DNA of 61,443 bases from a virus. Lineage: Duplodnaviria > Caudoviricetes. The stretch is taken from positions 1 through 61,443 of the IMG/VR virus record IMGVR_UViG_3300042905_004017. One strand, given 5' to 3'. Below are positions 10,606-61,443 of the stretch, one piece after another; within the stretch, counting starts at the first letter, position 1, and each line of letters starts with the position of its first letter. Made by a program: the position numbers and the translations under genes. The notes below the pieces were generated by a model. That model saw only the letters and a list, made by a program, of their open reading frames with translations. It made no database searches and had not been told where the DNA came from.

Positions 10606-11034
10606 TTAAAGTTTGTTTTTTATATGAGAGCCATGGACACGGACCTGTATATGCCCGTTGTAATAATCATCTGATTCTAAGACTTGGTGTCGGAATTGTT
10701 CTCTTGCTTCAATATATGAACATTCTGCTTTTGATTTACAGTAATACAGTATTTGTCTAGTGAATTTGTCTGCGCCTAGAGTTTGTATGTCTTTTTTGAG
10801 TTCGTCATTTGAGCCATAATATTCTTGCCAATCGCTATCTATTTTGCTTCTGATCTTCTTTTTCTTTTTGTTACCGTTTTTAAGTTTTACTGTTCGTACT
10901 GTAGTTTTTGAAAATTTAGCTAACTTCTTTCCTATGTATTTGCGCCCAGATACAGTATTCGTTATCAAATACACAAATCCTACACAATCTTCAGGAAGTG
11001 ATTCCACAAGAGTGGATTCGAATAGCCATGACAT
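10606..11034 (-). CDS. GIY-YIG family endonuclease (single domain, Seg-like)
   Basis: GFVYLITN..SGRKYIGKK, YYGS, conserved Glu and a terminal YYN; basic KKKKK loop. Confidence 0.85.
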   Translation of the reverse strand: MSWLFESTLVESLPEDCVGFVYLITNTVSGRKYIGKKLAKFSKTTVRTVKLKNGNKKKKKIRSKIDSDWQEYYGSNDELKKDIQTLGADKFTRQILYYCKSKAECSYIEAREQFRHQVLESDDYYNGHIQVRVHGSHIKNKL

Positions 11035-11045
11035 ACAGCATATAA

Positions 11046-17248: not shown

Positions 17249-17280
17249 ACTAGTATTTTAACAAATTATCATGTGACAAA

Positions 17281-18588
17281 TCAAGTTTTAATTTGTTCCA
17301 GCCATGGGAATGTTTGCCGCCAATTGGTCTTTCTTCTTTTATCTAATTCAGTTAGATAATTTTTTAGCCGTTGAATTTGGTCCAAATTTGATGAACATTT
17401 TTTACTTCTATTAGCGATCCCGGCCATCATTTGTTTTTGTCCTTGTTGAACATCAGTTTCATCTGGCATTAAGTTTAAGATTCTGTCAAAATCTTGTTGA
17501 AAAATTTCGCCACCAAACATGTAAATATCATCAATATGGTTATCGCCGGTGGTGTTACAATTATGCAATATTTTGTTTGATGTGGTTCTCCATCCATCTG
17601 ATACATCTTCTTGGTGTTGGTTCCACTGGTTAATCTTTTCAAGCAAATCTGGAAAAACTTTTATTGTTAAAGATGACATGGTACTGTTAATTGAGGGTAA
17701 AATCCACGGCGTGTTAAGAATATATTTAAAATTTTGTTCCCATAAACTCAAAGATAAACCGTAACGTGTATATTCTTGTTGCTCGCCCCACCCATCTAAG
17801 CTGGCTGTTAACTGTAATCGCCACATTTTTTTATGCTTTGCTAAAAGCTCAAATTTTCTTATGTATTGTTTAAATATTTTATGCGGTATATTTAGATTTG
17901 ATACAATTGATATTTGTAAATCTGGGTGACCGTGTTTGGCCCATATACTAATGGCTTTGTCTAATTCTCCCATTAAAAATGGTTCACCACCTAATACGTG
18001 GAAACGTGTAATTTTAGCCGCATTATCATGTGATTCTAAATATTTCCAAAAATCTGACACCATTTTTTCATAATTAGGATTGTTCTGTTTAAAAAATGGA
18101 CTAAATTGGTATATGTTACTTTCATTCATAAAAAAGTTGCCATGTTTTCTATTTTCATCTTCCCATCTGCTACTAAAATGGGGGCCACAATAAATACAGG
18201 CCATGTTACAAGTATTACGAAACCATACCTCCAATATGGTAGGAGTAACAGAAACTGCGCCATTATCAACATGTAGTTCTGCTGGTATCAGATTCGTGTC
18301 ATTGAGCTGTGCAAGTTGAAATTTCCTATCACTTTCCCCACCAGTTTCTTCAATATTTTTACAATATTCACAACCAGCACCGGGCCATTCGCCAGACAAC
18401 ATTTTATTTCTTGCTTGTATTTTTTCTGGTAAATTATGAAAGTTAGAAAAATTGTCTGGGTCTATTGAATACTTTTGTGTGCGATGACACGAGGCAGATG
18501 TTCCGCTTTGGAAAAATATTGTACTCCAAGACCATTTAAGCAGACATGCAGTTGATGATTTGATCGGAAATACTACTTTAGTCGTCAT
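17281..18588 (-). CDS. Radical SAM enzyme with N-terminal twitch/SPASM-like domain, AT-rich
   Basis: CNMACIYC, LGGEP; N-terminal C..KW...G...SCH...CEYC; likely start ATG 18588. Confidence 0.88.
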   Translation of the reverse strand: MTTKVVFPIKSSTACLLKWSWSTIFFQSGTSASCHRTQKYSIDPDNFSNFHNLPEKIQARNKMLSGEWPGAGCEYCKNIEETGGESDRKFQLAQLNDTNLIPAELHVDNGAVSVTPTILEVWFRNTCNMACIYCGPHFSSRWEDENRKHGNFFMNESNIYQFSPFFKQNNPNYEKMVSDFWKYLESHDNAAKITRFHVLGGEPFLMGELDKAISIWAKHGHPDLQISIVSNLNIPHKIFKQYIRKFELLAKHKKMWRLQLTASLDGWGEQQEYTRYGLSLSLWEQNFKYILNTPWILPSINSTMSSLTIKVFPDLLEKINQWNQHQEDVSDGWRTTSNKILHNCNTTGDNHIDDIYMFGGEIFQQDFDRILNLMPDETDVQQGQKQMMAGIANRSKKCSSNLDQIQRLKNYLTELDKRRKTNWRQTFPWLEQIKT

Positions 18589-19459
18589 TATAGTCACCAG
18601 AAAGAGAACCGCCACCCCACGAGCCCATGCCTTGTCTGGTATAACTAGGAGTCAGTCCATTCATCTCAAGGATATCGTCCCGGAGATTTTGATTACGCTT
18701 TTCAATATTGAGTACTCGAGTAAAGCTATTAGTGATAGCAGCAGTATAGTAAGCAAAAGGATTTTGACTCTTGCTTTCATCAAATTGTAGTCCTATCTGT
18801 GATAGTTGCAGCAGTGCTTGGCTGCGCATTTCGTCGTTGTAAGTATAACCACGCCAGTTTGATCTTGTAGCATAACGTTCGCACAGTTTCATAAACATGT
18901 GTGCCAGTGTTCTTGTCATAGTACCGTGATCTCTATTAAACTTGCCTTTGATCAAATCACCTTGCCAATGACTTTTGCCCACACAGTAGGGAACGCCGTC
19001 TTCGTCAATTTTATAGTGCTGGAACGGGGGAAAGTTGACCTTGACAAATTTGCTAGGCAACACTGCCGCAGCATCGTCGTATTCGGTTAATGGGTCTGTG
19101 TCATCGTCCTCTACCGGCGCTTTGACTTTTTTTGATTTGGCCGCGTCGGTGGGAATGTGTTCCCAGGTCATCACTCTAAACACTATGTCTGTGGTGGGAA
19201 TTTTGCTTGGTTTGACAGCAAAATCATCCAGCTTTAACTTGACTGTGCTGGTTGATTGCGCTAGATCATAAGCAGCACGAGTCAATCTTTCTGCTCGCAA
19301 CTTGCGTCCCTCGGCTGTGTTTTTCTTGTTGATTTTGTCTACAGATGGCAAAATGATATCATAATAGGCATCTTGTGCGGTTGCAAAGCTGCAATAGGTA
19401 ATCTTGCTTTTGTGTATTTCTTTTAAAATATCTCTGTTGTTTAGGTAATTGTGTTTCAT
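18578..19459 (-). CDS. gp55: Late-transcription sigma factor, T4 gp55-like
   Basis: N-terminal YLNN.D.L, NWRGYTY.DEM and FDESKSQNPFAYYT; lies upstream of gp47/gp46 as in T4-like phages; TAAATA promoters present in the window. Confidence 0.85.
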   Translation of the reverse strand: MKHNYLNNRDILKEIHKSKITYCSFATAQDAYYDIILPSVDKINKKNTAEGRKLRAERLTRAAYDLAQSTSTVKLKLDDFAVKPSKIPTTDIVFRVMTWEHIPTDAAKSKKVKAPVEDDDTDPLTEYDDAAAVLPSKFVKVNFPPFQHYKIDEDGVPYCVGKSHWQGDLIKGKFNRDHGTMTRTLAHMFMKLCERYATRSNWRGYTYNDEMRSQALLQLSQIGLQFDESKSQNPFAYYTAAITNSFTRVLNIEKRNQNLRDDILEMNGLTPSYTRQGMGSWGGGSLSGDYNDD

Positions 19460-46628: not shown

Positions 46629-46696
46629 TCGCACAAACAAGCTTTATTCTGTTGATTAAACACGCATAAATAACAAAAGTCGGAGAATTTAACAAG

Positions 46697-48341: not shown

Positions 48342-49295
48342 ATGTCTTACGCACAAGGTAGTTTAATTGAAGCACAAGATTATAATCAAATACTAGGCGC
48401 TAATACTAGTACAGACACCAGTACGATTCATGCTGTGTGGGCTTGGGGCAACGGTAGTAGAGGATATGGACAAACTCCTATTAGTCAGGTATCGGTGGCC
48501 AGTCTTGTTACAGCCACTCAATGGGCCACATTGGTTAACACAGTTAATAGTGCCAACTTACACATTCGCAATACCAGTTCTGGTTTAACTGCCAACACAG
48601 CAGGTCAGGTAATTGGGCATTCTGGCGGCTTACCTACCGCCATTACATTACTAAATCAAGACAGATTGTTGTTTGCAACCAATTCGGCTGTTGTGGCCAA
48701 CCAAAGCTCATTGACTGCATACCCGGCCTGGATAGTAGCCGATACTTCTGCCACAGTAACAAGAAGTTTTGGTGCCAATGTAGCATTTGCCAGTCCAGAT
48801 GCAGCAAGATTTTTCTTCAATGCCGGAGGCAGATTAAAATTCAATTGCAGTGCTGTGAACAATGTGGGCGCTGGTTCGAGATCTGCTGCTGTTGTAGACT
48901 TGTTTAATTTTGCAGGTGGAATAGCCACATTTGGCGCCAATACCAATGGCGGCAGGACCGGCACAGGCGGTACTTTGAACAGCAATGATACTGCAAAAGG
49001 TTATTATGAAGCCACAATTGCAAACATACAGTTAGTGTCAATCACATCAACCACAAGTTTATACACTTCAGATACTGTTACAATAACTTACAGAACTAAC
49101 GGCACTCAAGGACAACACAACGATAATGGCACTATTCTAAGTTTTTGGATAAACATTTCGTCGGCACAAGGAAGTGGTTCTCCTAGTGTCAACGACAACA
49201 TCAACATTACACCCACTGTGACAGTAGACGTTTCGGCTCCTGAAACAACCAATTTGACCAATACCTGGGGCACTGTCACAGTTACTCGTCAATAA
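48342..49295 (+). CDS. Virion structural protein (fibre-associated)
   Basis: Thr/Asn/Ser-rich; Y..G.LI.A.DYN, GYGQ and AR.FFNAGG motifs; last gene of the structural block. Confidence 0.65.
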   Translation: MSYAQGSLIEAQDYNQILGANTSTDTSTIHAVWAWGNGSRGYGQTPISQVSVASLVTATQWATLVNTVNSANLHIRNTSSGLTANTAGQVIGHSGGLPTAITLLNQDRLLFATNSAVVANQSSLTAYPAWIVADTSATVTRSFGANVAFASPDAARFFFNAGGRLKFNCSAVNNVGAGSRSAAVVDLFNFAGGIATFGANTNGGRTGTGGTLNSNDTAKGYYEATIANIQLVSITSTTSLYTSDTVTITYRTNGTQGQHNDNGTILSFWINISSAQGSGSPSVNDNINITPTVTVDVSAPETTNLTNTWGTVTVTRQ

Positions 49296-49325
49296 GTTAT
49301 CTAAAAAAAGTCTTTACCTTTATAC

Positions 49326-49356
49326 AAGGTTAGCGTAAAATACTGCTAACCTTTCT
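49326..49356 (+). terminator. Hairpin at the junction of the structural and modification modules (terminator and/or promoter-overlapping operator)
   Basis: AAGGTTAGC-10 nt-GCTAACCTT with a short T-run; the loop contains TAAAAT. Confidence 0.45.
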
Positions 49357-49368
49357 ACAATCTTTAAC

Positions 49369-49683
49369 ATGGATACCATAAACGATATTGTAGGCCAGAT
49401 AAAATTGGCCACAGATTTTCAAATCAACAAAAAAATTTTACGAGAAAAAATTTGCTCAGACCTACACATGACTCACAACGGAGGCATGTTTAAAATTTCA
49501 CCAGAATTGTTAGCATTTGTACAAACCTGGCCCATCGATGAATTGTGTTTGGAAGATGCGTACGAAAATCCTGTACAAATTGATCGACAGACATTTTTAA
49601 TCACTGCACAACAACACTATCAAACCGTTATGAATCGTTGGCATCAGCAATATGAAGATCTCAAAAAAATCAGAAAAATCTAG
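49369..49683 (+). CDS. Hypothetical protein (possible fibre assembly chaperone)
   Basis: 104-aa ORF; NGG.F.I..EL..F and D...NPV.I. Confidence 0.6.
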   Translation: MDTINDIVGQIKLATDFQINKKILREKICSDLHMTHNGGMFKISPELLAFVQTWPIDELCLEDAYENPVQIDRQTFLITAQQHYQTVMNRWHQQYEDLKKIRKI

Positions 49684-50440
49684 AGGAATTTTGGCTTTTG
49701 CTTACAATGTTGAAACTATTGATTATGTATCAATAGCCAAACAAACTTTGCAGTTGGCCGGTAAAAAATTAGATTTACCATACACGTTGATAACAGATAA
49801 AGAATTTCACAATCAATCTCAAAATTCAAGATATGACATTGACTCCGGAAAGTTTATTACATGGAGAAATACAGGTAGGCATTGTGCATATGATTTGACA
49901 CCCTATGACGAAACATTAGTTATTGATGTAGATTATGTTGTGTTAAACAGCAATCTAAATAAAATATTTGATTGTGAATGGGATTATCTGTTGCAAAGAA
50001 ACACCTTTGCGTTGACCACACAGTACCCGCTACTGATGGGAGAAACCAGTTTACCGTTTGTCTGGGCCACGGTATTTGCATTTAGAAAAACTGCCAAATC
50101 TCGAATGTATTTTGATCTAGTAGGAAGAATACAAAGAAACTATAATTATTATCGATCACTTTACAATATTCAAGAAAGAATTTTTAGAAACGATTTTGCA
50201 TTTGCAATAGCGGACGTGATTTTAAATGGCTACAGCATAATAACAAATTCTATACCAGAGAATATGTTGACTGTAGATCAGGTGATAGATAGTATTCAAA
50301 CGCTTGATGATAATTTAGTTATAAAAGATTCCAACCGAGCCTATGTTGTGCCAAGAAACAATCTGCATGTAATGAGCAAAGCATACTTACAAAGTAAAGA
50401 TTTTAGTAAATTGATCAAGGGATTACTTGATGAATCATAA
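49652..50440 (+). CDS. GT-A fold glycosyltransferase-like protein
   Basis: G...FA.N...DY...A, LITD and TPYDETLVIDVD (DxD). Confidence 0.65.
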   Translation: MKISKKSEKSRGILAFAYNVETIDYVSIAKQTLQLAGKKLDLPYTLITDKEFHNQSQNSRYDIDSGKFITWRNTGRHCAYDLTPYDETLVIDVDYVVLNSNLNKIFDCEWDYLLQRNTFALTTQYPLLMGETSLPFVWATVFAFRKTAKSRMYFDLVGRIQRNYNYYRSLYNIQERIFRNDFAFAIADVILNGYSIITNSIPENMLTVDQVIDSIQTLDDNLVIKDSNRAYVVPRNNLHVMSKAYLQSKDFSKLIKGLLDES

Positions 50441-51254
50441 AGAACAATTTGGTTATTTGACAGTGGCATGTAATAACAATCAAGTTGATTATTTGCGATT
50501 GGCCTATGCACAAGCTTTGTGCGTGAAAAAAACACAAAAGAACAATCGGTTTGCAGTAATTGTAGATGCCAACACTGAAAAATTCTTAAATGAAAAACAT
50601 CAACAGGTGTTTGATTATGTGATACAAGTGCCCGAACACAATCTTGGTCCATATGGTGCAGAAGCCTTCGTATTTGACTTAACTCCGTTTAAAGAAACAA
50701 TCAAACTAGAGAGTGACATACTTTTGACACGCAGCATAGATCATTGGATTAATACGTTTAGGTTGAGAGACATGGTGTTGAGTGTGGGATGTAAAAATTA
50801 TCGCCAAGAGCCGTCATTGTCTAGAGCATATAGAAAAACATTTGACGATAACCATTTACCGGATGTGTATAATGGATTAATGTATTTTAGATTTACACAG
50901 ACTGCAAAGAATTTTTTTGATACAGCTAAAAATATTTTTTCCAATTGGGACACAATAAAAAATCAAATAAAAAATTGCAGGGAAGACATACCTAGTACAG
51001 ATTTGGTTTTTGCACTGTCAGCTCAAATAATAGGGCCGGAGTTGTGTACCCTACCCACTGCTGATTTTATTAATTTTGTACACATGAAATCTGCAATAAA
51101 TGAATTTGATCGTGATTTAAATTTTAATCAAGTTTTTGTCACTGAATTTGATACGGGCATGATTAGAATCAATAATGTAAATCAATATCATCCTTTGCAC
51201 TATTATGATAAAAACTTTTTAACCGACGAAATGATAGATTATTATGAGCAATGA
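50427..51254 (+). CDS. GT-A fold glycosyltransferase-like protein, paralog of the upstream gene
   Basis: GY...A.N...DY..LA and TPFKETIKLESD (degenerate DxD), F.HMK. Confidence 0.6.
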   Translation: MMNHKEQFGYLTVACNNNQVDYLRLAYAQALCVKKTQKNNRFAVIVDANTEKFLNEKHQQVFDYVIQVPEHNLGPYGAEAFVFDLTPFKETIKLESDILLTRSIDHWINTFRLRDMVLSVGCKNYRQEPSLSRAYRKTFDDNHLPDVYNGLMYFRFTQTAKNFFDTAKNIFSNWDTIKNQIKNCREDIPSTDLVFALSAQIIGPELCTLPTADFINFVHMKSAINEFDRDLNFNQVFVTEFDTGMIRINNVNQYHPLHYYDKNFLTDEMIDYYEQ

Positions 51255-51618
51255 TTTCTGGCAAGAAGTTTTTAGATTGGTTGACGAATATGATGCTGCT
51301 CGTCCTCAAATAACGATCGAACCTAGATTGTACTACAACACGCAAGATGGCACTGTTACAGGCTATTGCGAAACTGCTCATCCTGACAATGAAAATTATA
51401 TAGTTTTAGAAAATCCTGATGTTTACTTTAGAAACAACACAAATTTATTAAGAGTAAAAGATGGCAAATTGATTGTTATTGATCCCAAGCAACCAAGCAA
51501 GGCAAGACTAAAAAAATCCACGGCTGGGTATAAAACAGTAAAAGAGCACGCCTCGTTGCTGTTGGAATCAACAGAAGATTATCATGATATCGAATACTAT
51601 GACCACACAAACGATTGA
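51244..51618 (+). CDS. Hypothetical protein
   Basis: 124-aa ORF overlapping its neighbours. Confidence 0.65.
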   Translation: MSNDFWQEVFRLVDEYDAARPQITIEPRLYYNTQDGTVTGYCETAHPDNENYIVLENPDVYFRNNTNLLRVKDGKLIVIDPKQPSKARLKKSTAGYKTVKEHASLLLESTEDYHDIEYYDHTND

Positions 51619-52528
51619 TATAGCAGATTTAGATTGTATTTTTTTAACTTATGACGAACCTAAAAAAGAAGAATTCTGGATACGTATTCAAAACATGGTG
51701 CCGTGGGCAAAACGAGTTGACGGTGTCAAAGGGTCAGATGCTGCACACAAAGCTGCCGCCGCTGCAAGCGACACAGAACGATTTGTTCTAGTTGATGGAG
51801 ACAACATACCCGATCCAGAGTTTTTTAACTTACAGTTACGGATAGACGAAAGAAATCATGACCACGTTTTTAGATGGAAAGCACGTAATGTGGTAAATGG
51901 TTTGCGTTATGGTAATGGCGGTGTAAGTTGCTGGACTCGAGAGTTTGTTTTCAACATGCGTACCCACGAAGCCAGTTTAGGTGACGAAGAAACTGCCGTG
52001 GAATTTTGTTTTAATCCCAAATACACAGCCATGCACAATTGTTACAGTACAACCTATCCTAATGGTAGTGCCAAACAAGCATGGCGTGCTGGATTTAGAG
52101 AAGGTGTAAAAATGTGTCTTGACCGGGGGCACAAACCTTCATTACAGGAATTTGAAGAAGGCGTGAATAAAAGAAATTATGATAATCTTTGTATATGGCA
52201 CAGCGTAGGTGCTGATGTAGAAAACGGTTACTGGGCCATGTACGGAGCAAGACTAGGCACATACATGATCATGCTAGAAGGATGGGATTACCATCAGGTA
52301 CAAGATTTTGACATGTTAGAAAAGTTATGGTCAAGCTTTGGTAAAGAAGACCCCCAAGAAGGATGTGAACGCATTGAAGATGCATTACGCAATAGACTGG
52401 GACTACCTATTGTTATGTTCACGCCTGATCAAAGTCGATTCTTCAAGCATCATTATTCAACTGGTCAAAGAAACAGTGAAATTATGATGACAGAAATTGA
52501 TGTAATACGAAGGATTGAAGGATGGTAA
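51599..52528 (+). CDS. Glycosyltransferase-like (nucleotide-sugar transferase fold) protein
   Basis: FLTYDEP, GVKGSDAAH, VDGDN (DxD) and AWRAGFREGVK. Confidence 0.55.
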   Translation: MTTQTIDIADLDCIFLTYDEPKKEEFWIRIQNMVPWAKRVDGVKGSDAAHKAAAAASDTERFVLVDGDNIPDPEFFNLQLRIDERNHDHVFRWKARNVVNGLRYGNGGVSCWTREFVFNMRTHEASLGDEETAVEFCFNPKYTAMHNCYSTTYPNGSAKQAWRAGFREGVKMCLDRGHKPSLQEFEEGVNKRNYDNLCIWHSVGADVENGYWAMYGARLGTYMIMLEGWDYHQVQDFDMLEKLWSSFGKEDPQEGCERIEDALRNRLGLPIVMFTPDQSRFFKHHYSTGQRNSEIMMTEIDVIRRIEGW

Positions 52529-53904
52529 GTGATTTTATGTCAGCTGCTGAACAGGCTAAAGAAAAATTAGGTCCTAGCCTCTGTTTGGCCAAATGGCAGC
52601 AGGTAAGCCTGCACCTTCCTACTGGATTGACCAATAGTTGCTATCATCCGCCACTACATGAAATAGATTCAAGTTTGTTAAGAGATAATCCCAGTGCATT
52701 GCATAACACACCTTACAAAAAAACTCAGCGTCAAATTATGTTACGCAACGAAAGGCCGGAGGAATGTAGTTATTGTTGGACACAAGAGGACATAGGGAAT
52801 TTAAGCGATAGGCATTACAGATCTGGTGAACCATGGGCTGCGGAGCACTTTGACGCTATCGTCAATTCCACTGGCGACGAGGACGCTATTCCTTCCTATG
52901 TGGAAGTCAATTTCAACCATGCTTGCAACCTCAAGTGTAGCTATTGCAGTCCGCAGTTTAGTAGCAGCTGGGGTGAGGAAATTGGAAGATTTGGAGGATA
53001 TCCCACTAGTACTATTCATAATGATGTTTCCCATTTTACAGGTCGCAGAAAACCTATCCCCGCTCGTGAGGAAAATCCTTACGTAGATGCATTCTGGGAA
53101 TGGTGGCCAAGTCTATATCCAAAACTAAAACATTTTAGAATGACCGGCGGCGAGCCCTTGATGGATCGCAATACATATCGTGTGTTTGACTATGTGTTAG
53201 CATTTCCTAAATCTGATTTGCACATTGATGTCACTAGCAATTTTAGTGTGGAACAAAAGTTATACGATCAGTATCATGATTATGTAAAAAGATTGTGCGA
53301 TACTAACATAGAACACTTTATGCAATATGTTAGTTTAGACTCAGGAGTACGTGGCCATGCCGAATATATACGTCACGGCTTGGACTTTAATAGAGTACAT
53401 GAAAATGTTCATAGATATTTGGATAAGATTCCCAATAGAAACAGTTTAAGTTTTATTGTCACAATGAGTAATTTAAATGTGCTTGGACTACAAACTTTGC
53501 TACAGTGGATTTTATCATTACGACTTTTATATAGTAAAACATATCAAAGAGTTTGGTTTGACACGCCCATACTGAGACAACCCACTTGGCAAAGTTTGCA
53601 GATACTTCCGCCTGTGTATACCAAACGATTGCAGGATGTGGTAGATTGGATGCGAGCAAATTTAGAAACCACTGAACGACCATTTCAAGGATTTAAAGAC
53701 TACGAAGTGCAAAGATTACAACGAGTCGTAGATTGGATGCGAGAAGGTAGCAAATTAGATCAAGAATATGTTAAACTACAACGTGCTGATTTTTTTAGAT
53801 TCTTTAATGAGCACGATAAACGGAGAAATACTTGGTTTTTGAATGCCTTTCCAGAAATGCAAGAGTTCTGGAATGAATGTAAATATCATGCCCAAAATTC
53901 ATAA
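52522..53904 (+). CDS. Radical SAM enzyme with N-terminal twitch-like domain
   Basis: CNLKCSYC, TGGEP; N-terminal CLAKW...SCYH...CSYC. Confidence 0.9.
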   Translation: MVSDFMSAAEQAKEKLGPSLCLAKWQQVSLHLPTGLTNSCYHPPLHEIDSSLLRDNPSALHNTPYKKTQRQIMLRNERPEECSYCWTQEDIGNLSDRHYRSGEPWAAEHFDAIVNSTGDEDAIPSYVEVNFNHACNLKCSYCSPQFSSSWGEEIGRFGGYPTSTIHNDVSHFTGRRKPIPAREENPYVDAFWEWWPSLYPKLKHFRMTGGEPLMDRNTYRVFDYVLAFPKSDLHIDVTSNFSVEQKLYDQYHDYVKRLCDTNIEHFMQYVSLDSGVRGHAEYIRHGLDFNRVHENVHRYLDKIPNRNSLSFIVTMSNLNVLGLQTLLQWILSLRLLYSKTYQRVWFDTPILRQPTWQSLQILPPVYTKRLQDVVDWMRANLETTERPFQGFKDYEVQRLQRVVDWMREGSKLDQEYVKLQRADFFRFFNEHDKRRNTWFLNAFPEMQEFWNECKYHAQNS

Positions 53905-55240
53905 CGAAACAGATTTAGAATACAAGCGTAGAGTGATTGACATTAAGTCCGAATCATTCTGCGGAGCAAAATGGTATAACGCAACTATATGGTTAGGCAG
54001 TGGCATGACTACCAGTTGCCATCATCCGCTCCCGCATAAAGTCAGCGTTCTAGAAGTGCAAGCAAATCCTCGAGTATTACATAACACAACCAAAAAGAAA
54101 GAGGAACGTCGTCAAATGCAAGCAGGCCAAAGACCAGCTGGTTGCGAATATTGTTGGAAGATCGAAGACATCGGTCGCGACAACGTTAGTGATCGTGTTT
54201 ACAAAACGGTAATATATTCAGATGAGGATTTGGAACATGCATACAACACTAGCTTCGACAAAGATATCAATCTTCGCACTCTTGAAATCAGTTTTGACCG
54301 TACTTGTCAGTTTGCTTGCTCTTATTGCAATCCTGCATTCAGTAGTACTTGGGTCAAAGACATTAATACCAATGGGCCTTATGTGGAACTTGAGTCTGAC
54401 GGTAGGAACCATTTTACTCATAGTCATGATAGTGCTCAGTTGTTTAAATTTGGTCAAGATAATCCATACGTCACAGCATTCTTCCAGTGGTGGGAATCAG
54501 ATCTCCACCGAACCTTAGATGAATTGCGTATAACCGGCGGCGAACCACTAATGTCAGGTTATACCTGGCAATTGCTTGATTGGTTCAAAACAAATCGAGG
54601 CCGAAGCAAAACACGATTGGCAATCAATTCTAACCTAGGAGCTCAAGTTGATCTCGATCGCTTATTTGAAAGTGTGGACTCACCCATTGACTTATACACT
54701 AGTAATGAAAGTATCGGAGCTCATGCAGAGTATATTAGAGACGGACTGGTTTGGGACGATTGGGCTAATAATATAGAATTAACATTAGATCATCAAGTAG
54801 GCAATAAATTACGTGGCTTACACATTATGTGCACCATTAATGCTTTGTGTTTAGAAAGTCTTACAGAATTTTTAGATCTCATAATAGAATGGAAACAAAA
54901 CTACGGACGCGATTTCCCTAGCTTTACGTTAAACATATTACGATTTCCTAGTTTTCAAAGTCCACTTGTGTTGTCGGACGAAACAAGAACACGACATAAA
55001 AATAATTTAGAGGCCTGGTTGGCGGCAAATAATAATGAATACCTGCATCAACATGAAGTAAATCATGTGCAACGCCTAATTGATTATTTAGATATTGTAA
55101 AAACTCCACACGCAGGAGCAGCAGAACAAAAAATATTACAACGAGATTTTAAAAAATTTTATCAACAGTATGACAAACGACGAGAAAAAAAATTTATAGA
55201 AACGTTTCCTAACTTGGTAGATTGGTACAATAAATTATGA
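53888..55240 (+). CDS. Radical SAM enzyme with N-terminal twitch-like domain
   Basis: CQFACSYC, TGGEP; N-terminal CGAKW...SCHH...CEYC; likely start ATG 53888. Confidence 0.9.
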   Translation: MPKIHNETDLEYKRRVIDIKSESFCGAKWYNATIWLGSGMTTSCHHPLPHKVSVLEVQANPRVLHNTTKKKEERRQMQAGQRPAGCEYCWKIEDIGRDNVSDRVYKTVIYSDEDLEHAYNTSFDKDINLRTLEISFDRTCQFACSYCNPAFSSTWVKDINTNGPYVELESDGRNHFTHSHDSAQLFKFGQDNPYVTAFFQWWESDLHRTLDELRITGGEPLMSGYTWQLLDWFKTNRGRSKTRLAINSNLGAQVDLDRLFESVDSPIDLYTSNESIGAHAEYIRDGLVWDDWANNIELTLDHQVGNKLRGLHIMCTINALCLESLTEFLDLIIEWKQNYGRDFPSFTLNILRFPSFQSPLVLSDETRTRHKNNLEAWLAANNNEYLHQHEVNHVQRLIDYLDIVKTPHAGAAEQKILQRDFKKFYQQYDKRREKKFIETFPNLVDWYNKL

Positions 55241-56700
55241 GTGTTAAAGGATTTTATAATAAAGGATATGTGTATAATGAGAGAGCTCCGTATTTTATTG
55301 AACGTGAGCAACTTACAGATAGACAATGGCAATTGCTTACTGAAAGCAAAACATTTTGCATGATGCCGTGGGTACACATGCATGCTTTTCCAGATGGTCG
55401 CGCATATCCGTGTTGCCTTGCAGATTACTGGTATCCAGTTGGAGACTTACGTAAGAACACAATGAAGGAAATATGGAATCAAGAATCTTACAAAACCATG
55501 CGAAAGAATATGCTGGAAGATAAGCCTTGTAAAGAATGCAACAAATGTTATGAACAAGAATCAAACGGTTTTTTTAGTTTAAGACATGACGGAAACCGCA
55601 ATTACGGACATCATATAAAAGAAGTTGATCAAACTGCCAACGATGGCTACCATCCAGAATTTAAAATAAGATATTGGGATGTGAGGTTTAGCAATCTTTG
55701 TAATTTCAGTTGTCGTAGTTGCGGTCCGATCTTTAGTAGTAATTGGTATAATGATCATGTCAAGTTGTACAATCGCAAACCTGATGTGCTTGGCAGAGAA
55801 ATGGCCAGGGTTGAATATACAGCAGGTGACGAAGATACTATGATAGAGCAAATGCTTCCGCATATTCCGTATCTTGAACAAGTTTATTTTGCCGGCGGCG
55901 AACCTCTAATCATGAAAGAACATTACTTCATGTTAGAAAAATTGATCGAACATGGTAAAACAGATGTGCGTATTCAATACAACACAAACTTCAGTGAACT
56001 TGCTTATAAAGATAAACATGTTTTTGATTACTGGCGACATTTTAAAAACGTCAGCGTTGGTGCTAGTTTAGACGCATCTGGAGCTAGAGCCGAACTTATG
56101 CGTCGAGGCACAGATTGGAAACAAACTGTAGAAAATCGACAAAGAATGATAGCAGAAGTTCCGCATGTTGATTTTTATGTTAGTGCTACAGTTAGTGCTA
56201 TGAATGTATTACACGTATTAGACTTTCACCGTGAATGGACAGAGTTGGGTCTGATTCAAGCAAAGGATTTTAATATCAATTTATGCCAATCGCCAGACTG
56301 GTATCGACCAAATATTTTTCCTAAAGAATTTAAAGAAAGAGTTATTGTTCCAAAATATCAAGAACACATAGAATGGTTGAAAAACAAAGACTCTTTAAAA
56401 CGTGCTACTAATGGATTTGAATCATTGTTAAAGTTTATTTTGTCAAATAATAAAGAAGAAATTCAAGTTCATGAATTTGAGTATGAAACATTTAAAGGGG
56501 AAAGTTGGCCAAGCTGGAATGATTTTTGTAACGGAGTTAAGTCAAAAAATAGTTTGATAAATGAAGAAATTGATCAATTTGTTCAATCAATTAAACAAAC
56601 GAGAGGACTTCAAGAGTTTAAAAATCAAATTAAAAAATTAGATGAAATTAGAAATGAAAATTTTTGGAAAGTATTCCCCGAATTAAATGAATTTGCCTAA
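55237..56700 (+). CDS. Radical SAM enzyme with N-terminal twitch/SPASM domain
   Basis: CNFSCRSC, AGGEP, YNTN; N-terminal CMMPW...DG..YPCC...CNKC. Confidence 0.9.
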   Translation: MSVKGFYNKGYVYNERAPYFIEREQLTDRQWQLLTESKTFCMMPWVHMHAFPDGRAYPCCLADYWYPVGDLRKNTMKEIWNQESYKTMRKNMLEDKPCKECNKCYEQESNGFFSLRHDGNRNYGHHIKEVDQTANDGYHPEFKIRYWDVRFSNLCNFSCRSCGPIFSSNWYNDHVKLYNRKPDVLGREMARVEYTAGDEDTMIEQMLPHIPYLEQVYFAGGEPLIMKEHYFMLEKLIEHGKTDVRIQYNTNFSELAYKDKHVFDYWRHFKNVSVGASLDASGARAELMRRGTDWKQTVENRQRMIAEVPHVDFYVSATVSAMNVLHVLDFHREWTELGLIQAKDFNINLCQSPDWYRPNIFPKEFKERVIVPKYQEHIEWLKNKDSLKRATNGFESLLKFILSNNKEEIQVHEFEYETFKGESWPSWNDFCNGVKSKNSLINEEIDQFVQSIKQTRGLQEFKNQIKKLDEIRNENFWKVFPELNEFA

Positions 56701-57895
56701 GACAATTTGCATGCTGCCGTGGATAAGCATAGAAACAAGTCCAATTGGTACGGCCAGACCTTGTTGTTTGGCTATTGATGAAATCACAGATGATACAGGT
56801 AGAAAATATGATCTAAATAAAACAGACTTACAGACCATATATAACAGCACGTACATGCAAAAATTACGACAGCAATTTCGTGCAGGAGAAAAACCTGAAA
56901 CGTGTAATCGTTGCTGGCAAGAAGAAGATGCTGGTCGTGCAAGTAAAAGAATTTATAGCAAGATAAGGTTAAAAGAGTTTGTTGATAAAGTTGACTATGC
57001 AAACGATACCCCTGATCAGCTTTGGTTTGTTGATTTAAAACTAGGCAACATTTGTAATCTCAAATGTAGAATATGTGGTTCTTGGTCTAGTAGTAGATGG
57101 GCACAAGAAGAAATAGATTACATACCGGAATTAAAAAACAAAAAAGACCATCTTGCCTATAAATTTTTACAACAAGGCGCATGGCCGCGTAAGACACAAA
57201 CATTTTGGAACAATCTTCGAGAACTATTGCCTAATATTAAATATTTTGAATTTACCGGCGGCGAGCCTTTTATGATTCAAGAGCACTTTGATTTATTACA
57301 GTATGCAGTTGATCAAGGCCATGCTCAAAATATTGATATACATTACAATACTAACGGAACTCAATGGCCAGATGCACATGAATTATGGAAACACTTTAAA
57401 CGTGTAGATATTGCATTTAGTATTGATAATGTAGAACAAAGATTTGAATATGAACGCTACGGAGCAAAATGGAATGAAGTTACAGAAAATATAAAAAATT
57501 TTCATGATTTACGTGATCAATATCGAGGTAAAATTACAACACAGGCATGCATGACAATCAATATTCAAAATGTGTATTACCTAGAAGATCTATGTGCCTG
57601 GATTAATACACAAACGTTTGATGATCATTATTTTAATATGTTACATGATCCTAAACACATGTGTGTTGATAACCTAACCGAGGCAGCAAAACAAATTGTC
57701 GTAGAAAAATTAAAAGCAGGCACTTTTACACCTAGACATCGAGCAGAAATTTTGCGTATTATCAAATTTATAGAAAATGGCGCAGGATCTGATGGTGAAG
57801 AATTTGTTTTTAAAATGAAAAAAACAGACCAATATCGAAAACAAAGTTTTGAAGATACTCATCCAGAAATAGCCAGAGCAATGGGGTATGACTAA
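56687..57895 (+). CDS. Radical SAM enzyme with N-terminal twitch/SPASM domain
   Basis: CNLKCRIC, TGGEP, YNTNG; N-terminal CMLPW...PCC...CNRC. Confidence 0.9.
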   Translation: MNLPKTICMLPWISIETSPIGTARPCCLAIDEITDDTGRKYDLNKTDLQTIYNSTYMQKLRQQFRAGEKPETCNRCWQEEDAGRASKRIYSKIRLKEFVDKVDYANDTPDQLWFVDLKLGNICNLKCRICGSWSSSRWAQEEIDYIPELKNKKDHLAYKFLQQGAWPRKTQTFWNNLRELLPNIKYFEFTGGEPFMIQEHFDLLQYAVDQGHAQNIDIHYNTNGTQWPDAHELWKHFKRVDIAFSIDNVEQRFEYERYGAKWNEVTENIKNFHDLRDQYRGKITTQACMTINIQNVYYLEDLCAWINTQTFDDHYFNMLHDPKHMCVDNLTEAAKQIVVEKLKAGTFTPRHRAEILRIIKFIENGAGSDGEEFVFKMKKTDQYRKQSFEDTHPEIARAMGYD

Positions 57896-58784
57896 ACTAC
57901 AATTGGTTTTATCGCAAAATTGTTATACTTCTTTTCACCAACCTTGGTTAGTAGACCTTGTATCAGATTATTTTGATATAGTTTATATTGAGCACAATCT
58001 CACACTTGATAAAAGAGCTATTTTTGTTACAAATGTACTCAGTAATGATAATAAATGGATAGATAAAGAAAGAAAATTAATAGTAGATAATCTTTGGGAA
58101 ATATATCAACCTAGTCATGATCATAATCGTAGATTAGTTCTTGTAAATAAAAATTGGTTTTGGTATAATGAATCACTATGGTATAGATACCTAGGATATC
58201 ATAATCATATTCCTAATCTTAAAATTTCTAAAAATGGTTTATTGTTGATGCATCTAAAAAAATTGCATAGAACAGAACTTTTTGAAAAATTGAATCTTGA
58301 TAATTTATTGTTTAGTTATGTTGCGGCTGGTTATACTATATCTAATGATATGGATTATAATGATGGTGAATGGCAACGATACTTCAATCCAGACTGGTAT
58401 AATTCTACCGCATTTAGTATAGTAGCAGAAACTATGGTAATGCCTAAAGATCCTTTGTTTGTTACAGAAAAAACCTTTAAGCCAATTGCCTTTCAACATC
58501 CTTTTATAATATTAGGACAACCAGGTATTTTAAGATATTTACGATCGCTAGGCTTTGAAACATTTGAAAATATATTTGACGAATCGTATGATAACGAAAA
58601 TGCAATTGATAAAAGATTAACAAGCGTTGTGAATCAAATCAATAATTACTCACATAAAAATTATGATTTGTACACTCTCAAAAAACTTACACATAATAAA
58701 GAATTGTTTTTCAACGAACAACTAGTAAAAGAAAAAATTAAAAAAGAAATTATAGAACCTATTTTAGAATATGCAGAAACCTGA
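57888..58784 (+). CDS. GT10 (fucosyltransferase)-like glycosyltransferase, AT-rich
   Basis: FSIVAET...FVTEKTFKPI...PFI..G resembles the TEK motif of GT10. Confidence 0.5.
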   Translation: MTKLQLVLSQNCYTSFHQPWLVDLVSDYFDIVYIEHNLTLDKRAIFVTNVLSNDNKWIDKERKLIVDNLWEIYQPSHDHNRRLVLVNKNWFWYNESLWYRYLGYHNHIPNLKISKNGLLLMHLKKLHRTELFEKLNLDNLLFSYVAAGYTISNDMDYNDGEWQRYFNPDWYNSTAFSIVAETMVMPKDPLFVTEKTFKPIAFQHPFIILGQPGILRYLRSLGFETFENIFDESYDNENAIDKRLTSVVNQINNYSHKNYDLYTLKKLTHNKELFFNEQLVKEKIKKEIIEPILEYAET

Positions 58785-60069
58785 TAAACTATGTATGGCA
58801 CCATGGACGCATACATATCTCAGTCCTCAAACTGAAAGGCGTCTATGTTGTGCTAGTAGAGAACCTGCACAAAATTTTGCACAATACATAGATGTTAGTT
58901 CTGGTACAGGTCAATACATTCCAATCTCATTAGAACAGCATTGGAATGGTAATCATATGCGTAGTGTACGCCAACGAATGTTAGCAGGAGAAACACTACC
59001 TGAGTGCGAAGTATGTAACGAAAAATTACTAAACACAGACGTTTACCGCAGTTATTTTAATAATTTGTTTGCACATAAGTATCAACAAGTGTTAGAAAGT
59101 ACCGACGAAACAGGATATACAACTATGCAACCTGTTAGTTGGGATTACAGATTTAGTAATCTCTGTAACTTCAAATGCCGTATGTGCGGCGACATGTTGT
59201 CTAGTAGTTGGGAAAGTGAGCAAAGACAACACAATATGATCAATTGGCAGGATCCAAAAAATAATTGGATGCGGCCTGAAATCAAACACGAAATTGAACA
59301 GTTCCAGACAACTCAGATTGAAGCCGAGTTTGCAGCAGCAGTAGAGGACCACCGTATAGAGGAAGTGTATTGGGTGGGCGGAGAACCGTTAATGTATGAA
59401 CAGCATTGGCGGTATATGCAGCGCATTATAGAACTGGGAGATGGACCTAAAGTTTATGCTAGATACAATACTAATCTTAGTCGTGTTAATTACAGAGGCT
59501 GTAATCTTTATAGCGATATACTTACTAAACTGCGCGATTGGCAAATATGTGCCAGCATCGATGGCACAGGCCAAATTGGAGAATATATCCGAACAGGCCT
59601 TGATTATGAGGCATGGCTTGCTAACTTTAAGGAAGGAATTAGAATCTCTACGCACCGAAGGCAAATGAGATTAGACTTTACGCTTACCCTTCCGGGCATG
59701 TTTGAAGTAACGAATATACAGCAGTTAGCCGACAAGTTGGGTGTTGACATTCTGGCCAAGGTTGTGTTTAGTTTTACGCCGGACATAGTTATGTCACCTT
59801 TAGCCCTACCTAGATCCTTATTAGATCCTTGGGTAGACGAAACAATAATGGAACTTGGCACAGATGGCCCGTTAAAGGATATCTTGATTCAGCTTAAAAC
59901 ACGCCCTACCTTCCAAGAGCAATATGGTGAAACGGTATACCGTCAAGGTATTGCTCGAGGACGAGCTCGTGTGTTACAATTAGAATCTATTCGTAGTCAA
60001 AATATAACTATGGATGAAATACTATCAAAAAGAACGGATGTATATGAGTGGTGGACGGCCATCAGTTAA
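58771..60069 (+). CDS. Radical SAM enzyme with N-terminal twitch/SPASM domain
   Basis: CNFKCRMC, VGGEP, YNTN; N-terminal CMAPW...LCC...CEVC. Confidence 0.9.
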   Translation: MQKPDKLCMAPWTHTYLSPQTERRLCCASREPAQNFAQYIDVSSGTGQYIPISLEQHWNGNHMRSVRQRMLAGETLPECEVCNEKLLNTDVYRSYFNNLFAHKYQQVLESTDETGYTTMQPVSWDYRFSNLCNFKCRMCGDMLSSSWESEQRQHNMINWQDPKNNWMRPEIKHEIEQFQTTQIEAEFAAAVEDHRIEEVYWVGGEPLMYEQHWRYMQRIIELGDGPKVYARYNTNLSRVNYRGCNLYSDILTKLRDWQICASIDGTGQIGEYIRTGLDYEAWLANFKEGIRISTHRRQMRLDFTLTLPGMFEVTNIQQLADKLGVDILAKVVFSFTPDIVMSPLALPRSLLDPWVDETIMELGTDGPLKDILIQLKTRPTFQEQYGETVYRQGIARGRARVLQLESIRSQNITMDEILSKRTDVYEWWTAIS

Positions 60070-61228
60070 AGTTGTATTAAGAAATCCTTTAAACTATAGT
60101 GATCAAATTGACTACACTATAATTCCACATGACAATATTCTAGCACGAGATTGGACAGTAGCACTAAAATTGTTACTAGAATCAAATAGTTTGTTAGAGA
60201 AAAATTTTTGTTTTATAGGTTTTCCAAATAATTCAAGAAATATAGAATATCTTTGTAACGAAATCAATCGAGCAATATTTCAAATTAATACATTTAATGC
60301 CAGCTTGCAATGGCAAAAACAAGGATTACAATCATACATAATTGAAGATTTTTTTACTCCTGATGTTGTAAGATTCGGAGAAGAATATGAAACCGGACAC
60401 CAGGGTAATAAAGTGCATCATGACGATACTTATTATGCACAACATTTAGGTTTGCAAACTAAACAAAGTGCGTTAAACAGACTGCATAATCATTTTGAGA
60501 AGCTACAAGGTACTGTAGATAATTTGAGTTCTTATTACTTAGTAGCCGATTATGAAACAAAATATGCTATAAGACAATTAAATAATTTGTGTCATGAGTT
60601 AGAAAATTTACTTTTAAGTCAACACAAGCAGAAATATTTAAAAGAATGGATAAGACCAAGCCAAATAACCACGTGGTTACATGCAACCAGATATCACTTA
60701 ACAAATGAACACAAGCAACTCTTTTTAGTAAATAAATTTGATAGAAAATTTGGACATGTTTACATGCACTGGAGTCAGATTGGAAAAACTTACTATGAAG
60801 TATTCAGAGACGAGAACGCTCCTGATCTAATAGATACGGTATGTGATGCAATAACACAACTGGAATATTACAGCGGAGAGTTTGATGTTGAATGGGGCCA
60901 AGATACAGTTTATGGTAACCCAAACACAACTTGGGTAACTAAAGATTTAGATTTGTTTTATAATTGGTTAATCAAAAACAACAAAGATCCTGATGATCCT
61001 AATTTGTGTAATGGGTACATTCCAATTGGAGAAATAGATTTACAAAAATCGTTTGGATCAAAAAACAAGTTTGATATATGGGAAATTTTAAGCAGTCATC
61101 TTGACATTTACAGTATTGAAGTTGACGGAATAAAAAAAACGTATGAATATTGTTGGACGGATGCTAGTTATAAACAAATGCAAATAGACATAATGAAACC
61201 AGGATATGATTTTAGTAGCAGGCGGTGA
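60044..61228 (+). CDS. Hypothetical protein of the modification cluster
   Basis: Long ORF; LN.LH..FE, LN.LCHE.E and VYMHW.Q.GK suggest His-based metal binding; likely start 60044. Confidence 0.65.
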   Translation: MSGGRPSVKVVLRNPLNYSDQIDYTIIPHDNILARDWTVALKLLLESNSLLEKNFCFIGFPNNSRNIEYLCNEINRAIFQINTFNASLQWQKQGLQSYIIEDFFTPDVVRFGEEYETGHQGNKVHHDDTYYAQHLGLQTKQSALNRLHNHFEKLQGTVDNLSSYYLVADYETKYAIRQLNNLCHELENLLLSQHKQKYLKEWIRPSQITTWLHATRYHLTNEHKQLFLVNKFDRKFGHVYMHWSQIGKTYYEVFRDENAPDLIDTVCDAITQLEYYSGEFDVEWGQDTVYGNPNTTWVTKDLDLFYNWLIKNNKDPDDPNLCNGYIPIGEIDLQKSFGSKNKFDIWEILSSHLDIYSIEVDGIKKTYEYCWTDASYKQMQIDIMKPGYDFSSRR

Positions 61229-61443
61229 TAGTTTTGTATACGGCAGTGAACTAAAAGATTGTAACGTCAATATTAATCGTGCCGACTCAATAAAAAATGT
61301 TTACAATCATAGTTCTCTTACTTTTCCGGCATTATTAGCTGATAATTTAAAATATATCTGTACCGCCTGGCCAGGGTACAGCAATGAAAGTATTGCTAGA
61401 ACAGTAATAGCGGAATGTTCACAATTTGATAATTGTGGTGTGC
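61206..61443 (+). CDS. SGNH/GDSL-like hydrolase, partial (runs off the window)
   Basis: Hand translation MILVAGGDSFVYGSEL...AWPGYSNESIAR shows the GDS block and G.SN. Confidence 0.7.
   Translation, partial: MILVAGGDSFVYGSELKDCNVNINRADSIKNVYNHSSLTFPALLADNLKYICTAWPGYSNESIARTVIAECSQFDNCGV

Follow-up and report, generated by a model that had tools for sequence, protein, structure and literature searches.

Most characterised SPASM/twitch radical SAM enzymes act on peptides; others, such as BtrN, tailor sugars. Another family has been catalogued as NCBIfam NF033640 (N_Twi_rSAM, twitch domain-containing radical SAM protein; curated cut-off 170 bits, whole protein), and a literature search for NF033640 found no paper assigning a reaction to it. 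In viruses, 12 radical SAM genes have been described in the marine environmental genome of a T4-like phage (Nishimura et al. 2017, PMC5332604), and virion glycosylation has been described for mycobacteriophages (Freeman et al. 2023, as cited in PMC12619734).

I analysed a window of 61,443 nucleotides, which is the whole stretch of virus record IMGVR_UViG_3300042905_004017 given above. The source is a giant (jumbo) T4-like phage from lake water. From position 49369 to the window end, there are 13 ORFs, all on the plus strand, and all 12 junctions between them overlap by 4-62 nt, which bears out the sequence-only reading of about 12 kb of overlapping, co-oriented genes after the last structural gene. 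This island encodes five N-terminal-twitch (N-twitch) radical SAM enzymes, two GT8-like GT-A paralogs, one GT2-like GT-A protein, a weakly GT10-like protein, an SGNH-like ORF cut at the window end, and three unknowns. The genes, with the preceding one, are as follows.

48342..49295, plus strand: last structural-type gene before the island, 317 aa; in 15 related loci a homologue immediately precedes the island
49369..49683, plus strand: A104, small protein, first gene of the operon; BLAST homologues in 8 loci
49652..50440, plus strand: B262, GT8-like GT-A fold (model pLDDT 88.6; Foldseek)
50427..51254, plus strand: C275, assigned to GT-A through its paralogy with B262 (hhalign probability 97.9%, E 4.3e-13)
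51244..51618, plus strand: D124, small protein; homologues in 3 loci, close relatives only
51584..52528, plus strand: E314, divergent GT2-like GT-A domain (residues 9-165) and a helical C-terminal domain (model pLDDT 81.5)
52522..53904, plus strand: NTwi1, N-twitch radical SAM (NF033640, 313.8 bits), in its own orthologous clade
53843..55240, plus strand: NTwi2, N-twitch radical SAM (285.4 bits), the most conserved of the five
55237..56700, plus strand: NTwi3, N-twitch radical SAM (389.2 bits; Pfam SPASM 41-104, then Radical_SAM 150-314)
56687..57895, plus strand: NTwi4, N-twitch radical SAM (355.8 bits; Pfam SPASM 8-77, then Radical_SAM 119-275)
57888..58784, plus strand: F298, soluble, possibly GT10-like (nearest named Atlas clusters Glyco_transf_10, cosine 0.82 and 0.81)
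58771..60069, plus strand: NTwi5, N-twitch radical SAM (282.9 bits), in its own orthologous clade
60014..61228, plus strand: G404, strongly conserved (mean column identity 68% over 10 orthologues)
61206..61443, plus strand: SGNH-like ORF, 3'-open at the window end; its 79 visible residues share 46-48% identity with full-length orthologues

The order E314, NTwi1, NTwi2, NTwi3 is identical in 25 of 30 related viral loci, and thus the arrangement is not due to chance. The order and content of the island are conserved in aquatic jumbo T4-like phages, and near-identical DNA was found in 24 lake-water metagenome runs. The cultured Ralstonia phage RsoM2USA also has the core (A104-, B-, C-, E314-, and NTwi1-like genes); its gp354, gp349, and gp202 are 32%, 36%, and 50% identical to A104, NTwi1, and NTwi2, respectively. 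One island enzyme has more than 6,000 relatives in a protein collection at E<=1e-10. The island is real, widespread, and unstudied, and RsoM2USA, as a cultured carrier of the core, opens it to experiment. No 19-residue window in any of 12 island proteins reached a hydropathy of 1.6, and thus these proteins are soluble, without membrane segments. The start of A104 has no Shine-Dalgarno sequence. Pfam, NCBIfam, and PHROG models gave no family for A104 or D124; for G404, no usable match came from Pfam, a PDB profile search, or the Atlas; and family searches including PHROG matched nothing to the 317-residue upstream gene.

The sequence-only reading had counted five radical SAM enzymes in the island and seven in the window. 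It was found that all five island proteins pass the NF033640 cut-off over nearly the full model, as does a copy at 17281-18615, and a classic radical SAM gene at 11627-12748 makes the seventh. The genes outside the island, the first four of which form a second accessory block, are as follows.

9797..10594, minus strand: SGNH-like ORF
10606..11034, minus strand: segE-like GIY-YIG ORF
11046..11630, minus strand: SDR-like ORF, sub-threshold
11627..12748, minus strand: classic radical SAM
17281..18615, minus strand: NTwi0, the sixth N-twitch radical SAM, flanked by gp47-like and gp55-like genes (NF033640, 214 bits)

Pfam places SPASM N-terminal to Radical_SAM in three of the five island proteins. 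The CxxxCxxC motif, the GGE motif, and four N-terminal cysteines are kept in all five, and in an alignment of 19 family members C8, C76, C123, C127, and C130 do not vary and C73 hardly does. Each of the five falls into its own orthologous clade with an SH-aLRT of at least 99, and NTwi0 clusters with NTwi1 and NTwi2; the five island enzymes are old, non-redundant paralogs in one operon. The mean column identity of NTwi2 is 75% (25 orthologues). One relative has 14 NF033640 matches, 13 of them above the cut-off. A search of PDB sequences at E<=0.01 returned no relative of the island radical SAM enzymes.

The B262 model has 95 Foldseek matches in PDB at E<=1e-3; among those listed, most are GT-A glycosyltransferases (TM 0.31-0.44), including UGGT, GlyE, mimivirus R699, PBCV-1 A64R, LgtC, and glycogenin. 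In its DxD motif D92 and D94 are invariant, and C275 has invariant E95 and D97 at this position. Pfam, including Glyco_transf_8, gave no family at E<=0.05 for B262, C275, or 12 orthologues. Residues 9-165 of E314 match GT-A/nucleotidyltransferase folds in VIA (Z 9.4-7.3), a fold common to nucleotidyltransferases too, and D71-G72-D73 is nearly invariant. E314 itself has no Pfam match, while the E314-type repeat 2 of its homologue P0128 scored 25.3 bits against PF00535 (Pfam GT2; cut-off 23.3). None of B262, C275, and E314 matched a Pfam, NCBIfam, or PHROG model. The three GT-A-like proteins proposed from the sequence were thus recovered by other routes: B262 by Foldseek, C275 as a B262 paralog, and E314 by its VIA fold match. 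The GT10-like protein proposed with them fared less well, since the Atlas places F298 near Glyco_transf_10 but Pfam had no match and the PDB profile search gave nothing; the GT10-like identity is a lead only. F298 homologues were found in 5 loci.

The SGNH assignments made from the sequence are likewise tentative. In the SGNH-like family (10 sequences), S9, G40, N43, and H243 are invariant, but PDB profile matches to GDSL/SGNH esterases are weak (best, a GDSL protein, E 0.032), and Pfam DUF6071 is matched only by paralogs. For the SDR and SGNH proteins proposed at 9.8-18.6 kb, an SDR-like and an SGNH-like ORF are present, and the SDR-like match did not reach the threshold.

I consider, with a probability of about 0.6, that the island forms one self-contained operon whose soluble cytoplasmic enzymes first put together a short carbohydrate and then alter it by radical chemistry. 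I infer each chemical step as follows. The B262/C275 pair, E314, and perhaps F298 would transfer sugars from nucleotide-sugar donors to an acceptor. Each of the five N-twitch enzymes would take a hydrogen atom off an unactivated sugar carbon with the help of SAM and a reduced 4Fe-4S cluster, which may lead to oxidation, epimerisation, dehydration, or C-C bond formation. The SGNH-like esterases would take off acyl groups, and a carbamoyltransferase encoded just past the window end, beside a 33-residue peptide, would add a carbamoyl group.

Three lines of evidence support sugar chemistry: the glycosyltransferase folds, the sugar genes that follow the island in relatives, and the glycosyltransferases or exporters that adjoin bacterial homologues; it is these neighbours that point to a sugar as the putative substrate of the N-twitch enzymes. 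In relatives, the downstream genes encode the carbamoyltransferase, DegT aminotransferases, NAD epimerase/dehydratases, a PIG-L deacetylase, and a GFO/IDH/MocA oxidoreductase. In the genome G001, a UDP-glucose dehydrogenase gene adjoins another N-twitch copy, and in the examined stretch of Vibrio phage K566, four N-twitch genes are interleaved with two Pfam GT8 genes. In three of seven Bdellovibrionota loci examined, N-twitch genes lie beside glycosyltransferases or an exporter, with GT4, GT2, and GT1 among the neighbours, and in one of the three an ABC-2 exporter pair, a DegT aminotransferase, and a carbamoyltransferase are encoded as well; the other four have no sugar gene nearby. Against the pathway, it leaves A104, D124, G404, and the E314 C-terminal domain unexplained, and the F298 and SGNH labels are weakly based. 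The peptide substrates of most characterised SPASM/twitch enzymes, and the conserved peptide that relatives encode in their islands, also count against a sugar substrate. It is rather unlikely, but conceivable, that the 5-14 non-redundant N-twitch enzymes form a cascade of radical edits on one glycoconjugate, a sugar chemistry undescribed in viruses, or that the peptide, which ends in DPFIYK, is the scaffold of a glycosylated, carbamoylated early phage molecule.

What is the acceptor? The sequence-only reading proposed an unusual glycan on virion proteins. Its glycan part is supported by the GT-A folds, the tailoring genes of relatives, and the bacterial neighbours, while its virion part is drawn from position. 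Fibre or baseplate proteins may be glycosylated in the cytoplasm and the glycan then edited by the radical SAM enzymes, which I regard as a tenable but tentative view. The island directly follows the last structural gene, both here and in the 15 related loci whose upstream gene is visible, and the RsoM2USA core follows a fibre-like gene and tail/baseplate genes, although common descent alone may explain the conserved position. The solubility of all the island enzymes counts for this view, their conservation in phages of different habitats fits a phage-made acceptor, and the structural matches of B262 include the virus capsid-glycan enzymes PBCV-1 A64R and mimivirus R699. The signals at the island boundary argue against it.

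46666..46672, plus strand: nearest upstream copy of the late motif ATAAATA, 25 nt before the fibre gene 46697-48331
49313..49341, plus strand: sigma-70-like promoter candidate TTTACC-17-TAAAAT (9/12 positions match)
49326..49353, plus strand: terminator-like 10-bp hairpin that separates the fibre genes from the island (dG -12.5 kcal/mol)

The window has seven copies of ATAAATA where 16.7 would be expected; of these, six lie just upstream of structural genes in the correct orientation, and no copy was found in 49296-61443, which holds the island. The hairpin has a z of -4.56, its stability was equalled in none of 200 shuffles, and L001, L003, L008, L005, and RsoM2USA have hairpins with different stem sequences at the same place. 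The promoter match in the window is not significant alone (9/12 is reached by 13.5% of random windows), and a second -10-like sequence, TACAAT, lies at 49356-49361, 7 nt before the ATG. In relatives, TTGnnn-17-TATAAT is kept at the same place, with 12/12 matches in L008, and a score of at least 10/12 was reached in 12 of 22 relatives versus 1.7% of random windows. With the hairpin, the promoter of its own, and the absence of ATAAATA, the glycosyltransferase genes are predicted not to be co-expressed with the late structural genes; the island is probably transcribed early by the host RNA polymerase. Moreover, the NTwi2/peptide/carbamoyltransferase half of the RsoM2USA genes lies among ligase, clamp-loader, and helicase genes, and further N-twitch copies lie among replication and recombination genes, which also speaks against the virion.

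An early-type promoter, as predicted, would suit remodelling of the host envelope, in which early enzymes alter an LPS or capsule intermediate on the cytoplasmic side, for example to block superinfection or to keep progeny from sticking to debris. GT8-type enzymes of LPS cores are soluble, and therefore the absence of membrane segments is compatible with such remodelling. Bacterial homologues lie beside the ABC-2 exporter pair and GT4, GT2, and GT1 genes, and the K566 array is near LpxC and an annotated PagP. In seroconverting phages, as mentioned in PMC12619734, receptor-modifying genes adjoin receptor-binding genes, so that the position of the island may be counted for the host envelope as well. 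On the other hand, the enzymes are highly conserved across phages of likely different hosts, which argues against a host-specific glycan, and the island is without a lipid-carrier enzyme, a flippase, or an exporter. I hold host-envelope remodelling to be possible but doubtful.

Phage DNA would be a host-independent acceptor, with glycosyltransferases and radical SAM enzymes building a glycan on a modified base. Besides the predicted early-type promoter and the N-twitch copies among replication genes, a dCMP deaminase and a P-loop kinase are encoded at the island end of L001. However, the sole thymidylate-synthase-family gene of G001 (80% complete) is a true ThyA (NF002497, 344 bits; cut-off 327), with no second hydroxymethylase-like gene and no ThyX in that genome. 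G001, G002, and G003 (records 31-80% complete) have one PF00303 gene each, and no dCMP/dUMP hydroxymethylase was found in them besides thymidylate synthase. The amino-sugar and carbamoyl genes are also typical of glycan pathways. DNA is a very improbable acceptor.

The 33-residue peptide raises another question: is the product derived from it? The peptide gene lies just past the window end in relatives; 28 of 30 viral loci carry it, and nine residues of the peptide are invariant (Y17, R18, L21, E23, L24, D28, P29, Y32, and K33). RsoM2USA has an unannotated copy, in which only the C-terminal DPFIYK is kept, between DUF6071 genes and close to its NTwi2 orthologue and the carbamoyltransferase. 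The peptide may be a precursor on which at least one N-twitch enzyme acts before a sugar or a carbamoyl group is added, in keeping with the common action of SPASM/twitch enzymes on peptides; such a product would resemble mycofactocin, a cofactor derived from a ribosomal peptide. In opposition to this, the peptide is absent from all 21 Bdellovibrionota-type loci with N-twitch arrays, Pfam and NCBIfam detected no peptide-recognition domain, and the peptide lies outside the present window. A peptide-derived or small-molecule acceptor or product is unlikely, and the precursor role of the DPFIYK peptide is a little more unlikely still; a small share of the probability goes to acceptors other than those considered here.

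Related jumbo phages spend at least 12 kb on a family of radical enzymes without a known reaction. Knowing the product would reveal whether decoration of the virion, disguise of the host, or synthesis of a new metabolite is what large phages achieve with it, and it would assign chemistry to the whole catalogued N-twitch family.

How does the carbohydrate-editing operon compare with known systems? As in mycofactocin- and PQQ-type loci, the gene for a small invariant peptide accompanies those for radical SAM/SPASM-type enzymes and a GT-A glycosyltransferase; in contrast, the peptide-recognition domain, peptidase, and flavoenzyme of those systems were not found here, and the bacterial arrays are without the peptide. 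With BtrN, the island enzymes would share a radical SAM core, one auxiliary domain with a cysteine-ligated cluster, and sugar-pathway neighbours, but the auxiliary domain is C-terminal in the BtrN type and N-terminal in the island enzymes. Like mycobacteriophages, PBCV-1 (A64R), and mimivirus (R699), the phage encodes soluble GT-A enzymes near structural genes; those viral systems are not known to have a radical SAM array, and the island has its own promoter and hairpin. The marine genome of PMC5332604 likewise belongs to an aquatic T4-like phage rich in radical SAM genes; that paper treats their products only as Fe-S cluster clients, and the passages considered give no operon, family, or function. 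NF033640 has so far been a catalogued family only, whereas here five of its paralogs are packed in one operon.

The sequence-only reading had described a cluster of co-oriented, overlapping genes behind the fibre genes, and this was borne out. From position 49369 to the window end, there are 12 complete ORFs and one ORF open at its 3′ end, all on the + strand, and 12 of the 12 junctions within this island are overlaps of 4 to 62 nt. By its position, the island favours the virion proteins as the acceptor of whatever it makes.

The island and its upstream border (window positions)
48342-49295, last structural gene
49326-49353, hairpin
49369-49683 (+), A104
49652-50440 (+), B262, GT-A-like
50427-51254 (+), C275, paralog of B262
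51244-51618 (+), D124
51584-52528 (+), E314, GT-A/nucleotidyltransferase fold
52522-53904 (+), NTwi1, N-terminal-twitch (N-twitch) radical SAM enzyme
53843-55240 (+), NTwi2, the same family
55237-56700 (+), NTwi3, the same family
56687-57895 (+), NTwi4, the same family
57888-58784 (+), F298, tentatively GT10-like
58771-60069 (+), NTwi5, the same family as NTwi1-NTwi4
60014-61228 (+), G404
61206-61443 (+), SGNH-like ORF cut by the window end

The five predicted radical SAM enzymes all matched the NCBIfam model NF033640 (N_Twi_rSAM) with 283-389 bits against a cut-off of 170. In three of the five, a SPASM-type domain precedes the radical SAM core (Pfam), and the CxxxCxxC triad, a GGE motif and N-terminal cysteines are kept across 19 aligned family members. 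NTwi4 had no match in the PDB at E<=0.01 (phmmer). NTwi3 has more than 6,000 relatives at E<=1e-10 in a large protein collection. In a quick, not careful, IQ-TREE search, NTwi1-NTwi5 each formed a clade of their own with one copy per relative (SH-aLRT of at least 99). Thus, the five paralogs are old and not redundant. In a related genome at 80% completeness, the family is matched 14 times, and 13 of these matches pass the cut-off. The two additional radical SAM enzymes, the SDR-like ORF and the SGNH-like ORF noticed earlier at 9.8-18.6 kb of the window were also found. A segE-like GIY-YIG homing endonuclease gene (10606-11034, - strand, 116.6 bits) lies within this second accessory block, adjoining SDR-like and radical SAM genes. 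The G+C content of the accessory blocks is 0.32-0.38 (10001-18000) and 0.33-0.40 (50001-60000), and that of the structural genes is 0.40-0.46.

Since the seven other complete island proteins matched no Pfam, NCBIfam or PHROG model, they were examined by structure. B262 is GT-A-like as proposed: its model (pLDDT 88.6) gave 95 Foldseek matches in the PDB at E<=1e-3, mostly GT-A enzymes among the matches shown, including UGGT, GlyE, LgtC, glycogenin, PBCV-1 A64R and mimivirus R699. C275 is its paralog (hhalign 97.9%). Residues 9-165 of E314 have a GT-A/nucleotidyltransferase fold (VIA Z 9.4-7.3), and a DGD motif is nearly invariant in the E314 family; in a longer homologue with two E314-type repeats, the second repeat exceeds the Pfam GT2 cut-off. 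No relation between E314 and B262 was detected by hhalign. The E314-type domain is also found in tandem within long homologues of 550-1,220 residues that have long helical tails (P0128 and about 170 more). For the GT10-like assignment of F298, there was a lead from Atlas only, and Atlas gave nothing for G404. The family of the SGNH-like ORF at the window end has invariant Ser, Gly, Asn and His, but its PDB profile matches are weak. PDB profile searches with E314, B262, C275, F298 and G404 returned chance-level matches only (ankyrin designs, fumarase, YoeB), and nothing usable came from Pfam for 37 orthologues or neighbours of the unannotated proteins. No membrane-type hydrophobic segment was found in any island protein. 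The best-supported reading is that these enzymes assemble a carbohydrate in the cytoplasm and then edit it by radical chemistry.

The island had no megablast match among 50,697 phage records. With NTwi4 as the query, 30 viral loci were found. The genes for E314, NTwi1, NTwi2 and NTwi3 stand in the same order as in the window in 25 of these; four others are cut or differ upstream, and L029 has a different array. Past the position of the window end, the relatives have a full SGNH-like gene, a small peptide gene, a DUF6071 protein and a carbamoyltransferase, together with lineage-dependent genes for a P-loop kinase, a dCMP deaminase, DegT aminotransferases, NAD epimerase/dehydratases, a PIG-L deacetylase and a GFO/IDH/MocA oxidoreductase. 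The island of one distant relative carries an additional gene between NTwi3 and NTwi5, for an alternative oxidase (L012:7940-8617; Pfam AOX, 264.5 bits). The peptide, basic and 33-34 residues long with a C-terminal DPFIYK, is conserved in 28 of the 30 viral loci just 3′ of the window end position.

Positions of the DPFIYK peptide
L001:15957-16058, and the equivalent place in 27 other viral loci
L031:17168-17278

This invariant peptide keeps alive a further reading, that the product is peptide-derived. Complex prediction for NTwi2 and the 33-residue peptide, together with two 4Fe-4S clusters and SAM, gave a score of 0.00 and no verdict, which speaks neither for nor against.

A scan of species-representative genomes with an NTwi2 alignment gave 29 cellular loci. 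Six (L033 and L035-L039), assigned to MAGs of Haliscomenobacter, Legionellales, Betaproteobacteria, Verrucomicrobia and Rickettsiales, hold the entire island together with fibre genes; these are probably phage contigs that were binned with bacterial sequences. Two were too short to judge. The remaining 21 are N-twitch arrays in Bdellovibrionota-type MAGs, and the DPFIYK peptide is absent from all 21. Seven of the 21 were run through Pfam; glycan-type neighbours of the N-twitch genes were found at three loci and none at the other four.

Glycan-type neighbours at Bdellovibrionota-type loci
L051, ABC-2 permease and ATPase, DegT aminotransferase, carbamoyltransferase, GT4
L057, GT1 and GT2 genes, a YdjC-like gene, two methyltransferases
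L060, three GT2 genes

These neighbours favour another acceptor, a glycan of the host envelope.

The window record has an estimated completeness of 17% (IMG/VR) for 61,443 bases, implying a genome of about 350 kb. Its T4-type proteins are the major capsid protein gp23, portal gp20, prohead protease, gp25, a gp5-like hub, gp46/gp47-like nuclease subunits and a gp55-like late sigma factor. One ORF between the baseplate and fibre genes (29780-43072, + strand) encodes 4,430 residues and has a single weak match, to an FG-GAP repeat; Ralstonia phage RsoM2USA has a 2,541-residue virion protein in the matching position. Near-identical DNA was found in 24 lake-water metagenome runs, with no RNA run among the runs listed.

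Is the island transcribed with the fibre genes? Of the T4 late motif TATAAATA, the window has just two exact copies, at 8292 (+) and 8313 (-), which face each other in the intergenic stretch of two divergent structural genes (8282-8442); the shorter ATAAATA is the informative form. It is depleted in the window (7 copies vs 16.7 expected), and six of the seven copies lie just upstream of structural genes in the correct orientation, which is the pattern expected of T4-type late promoters. There is no copy in 49296-61443, the nearest being at 46666 before a fibre gene. A 10-bp hairpin (dG -12.5 kcal/mol, z -4.56) separates the last structural gene from A104, and equivalent hairpins with differing stem sequences occur in L001, L003, L005, L008 and RsoM2USA. 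The sigma-70-like site at 49313-49341 matches at 9 of 12 positions, which is not significant alone (13.5% of random windows reach 9/12). It is the relatives that carry the argument: of 22, 17 have TTGnnn-17/18-TAnAAT as their best site, with a constant spacing to the start codon; of the other five, three were anchored wrongly, on a TTG start further upstream, and in two the -10 element is degenerate. Twelve relatives score at least 10/12 vs 1.7% of random windows, and L008 scores 12/12. In the distant clade, the ATG comes 6 nt after the end of the -10 element, a spacing suggestive of a leaderless island transcript. The absence of ATAAATA, the hairpin and the site conserved in relatives together predict an independent transcription unit, probably an early one. 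A mere 3′ end of a late fibre operon was rejected because of the hairpin and the predicted promoter, and this promoter also favours the host envelope glycan.

DNA is the least likely acceptor. In the related phage genome G001, the sole thymidylate-synthase-family gene is a true ThyA and no ThyX was found in this 80% complete record, which counts against DNA glycosylation via the hydroxymethyl-pyrimidine route. Other N-twitch copies of G001 lie among RecA/UvsX-like, DnaB-like and UvdE genes; their neighbourhood also includes an SDR, a methyltransferase and a UDP-glucose dehydrogenase. Another G001 gene (L069:6-2021) joins a CHASE2 sensor domain to an adenylate/guanylate cyclase domain, and a fatty acid desaturase is encoded elsewhere in this genome (L067:6553-7296).

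For the N-twitch family, for DUF6071 and for jumbo-phage arrays of radical SAM genes, the literature searches turned up no paper. Nishimura et al. 2017 (PMC5332604) reported 12 radical SAM genes in a marine T4-like genome, with no operon or function given in the available part of that paper. Among cultured relatives, RsoM2USA keeps the gene order of the island core, which there comes right behind a fibre-like gene and the tail and baseplate genes.

Island core of RsoM2USA
gp354, A104-like
gp353, B262-like
gp352, C275-like
gp350, E314-like, 40% identity
gp349, NTwi1-like, 36%

RsoM2USA has a second set about 90 kb from this core, surrounded by genes for ligase, clamp loader and helicase: an NTwi2 orthologue at 50% identity, three DUF6071 genes, a carbamoyltransferase and an unannotated DPFIYK peptide in which only the C-terminal motif is kept. 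No discussion of either set was found in the part of the RsoM2USA paper available. In the examined stretch of Vibrio phage K566, another cultured relative, four N-twitch genes are interleaved with two Pfam GT8 genes, and the array lies near LpxC and an annotated PagP. Thus, the earlier proposal of an unusual glycan on the phage's own virion proteins is supported in part: a carbohydrate that is built and edited agrees with it, while for the acceptor the position speaks for virion proteins and the predicted promoter, the neighbours at bacterial loci and the K566 gene context speak for a host envelope glycan.
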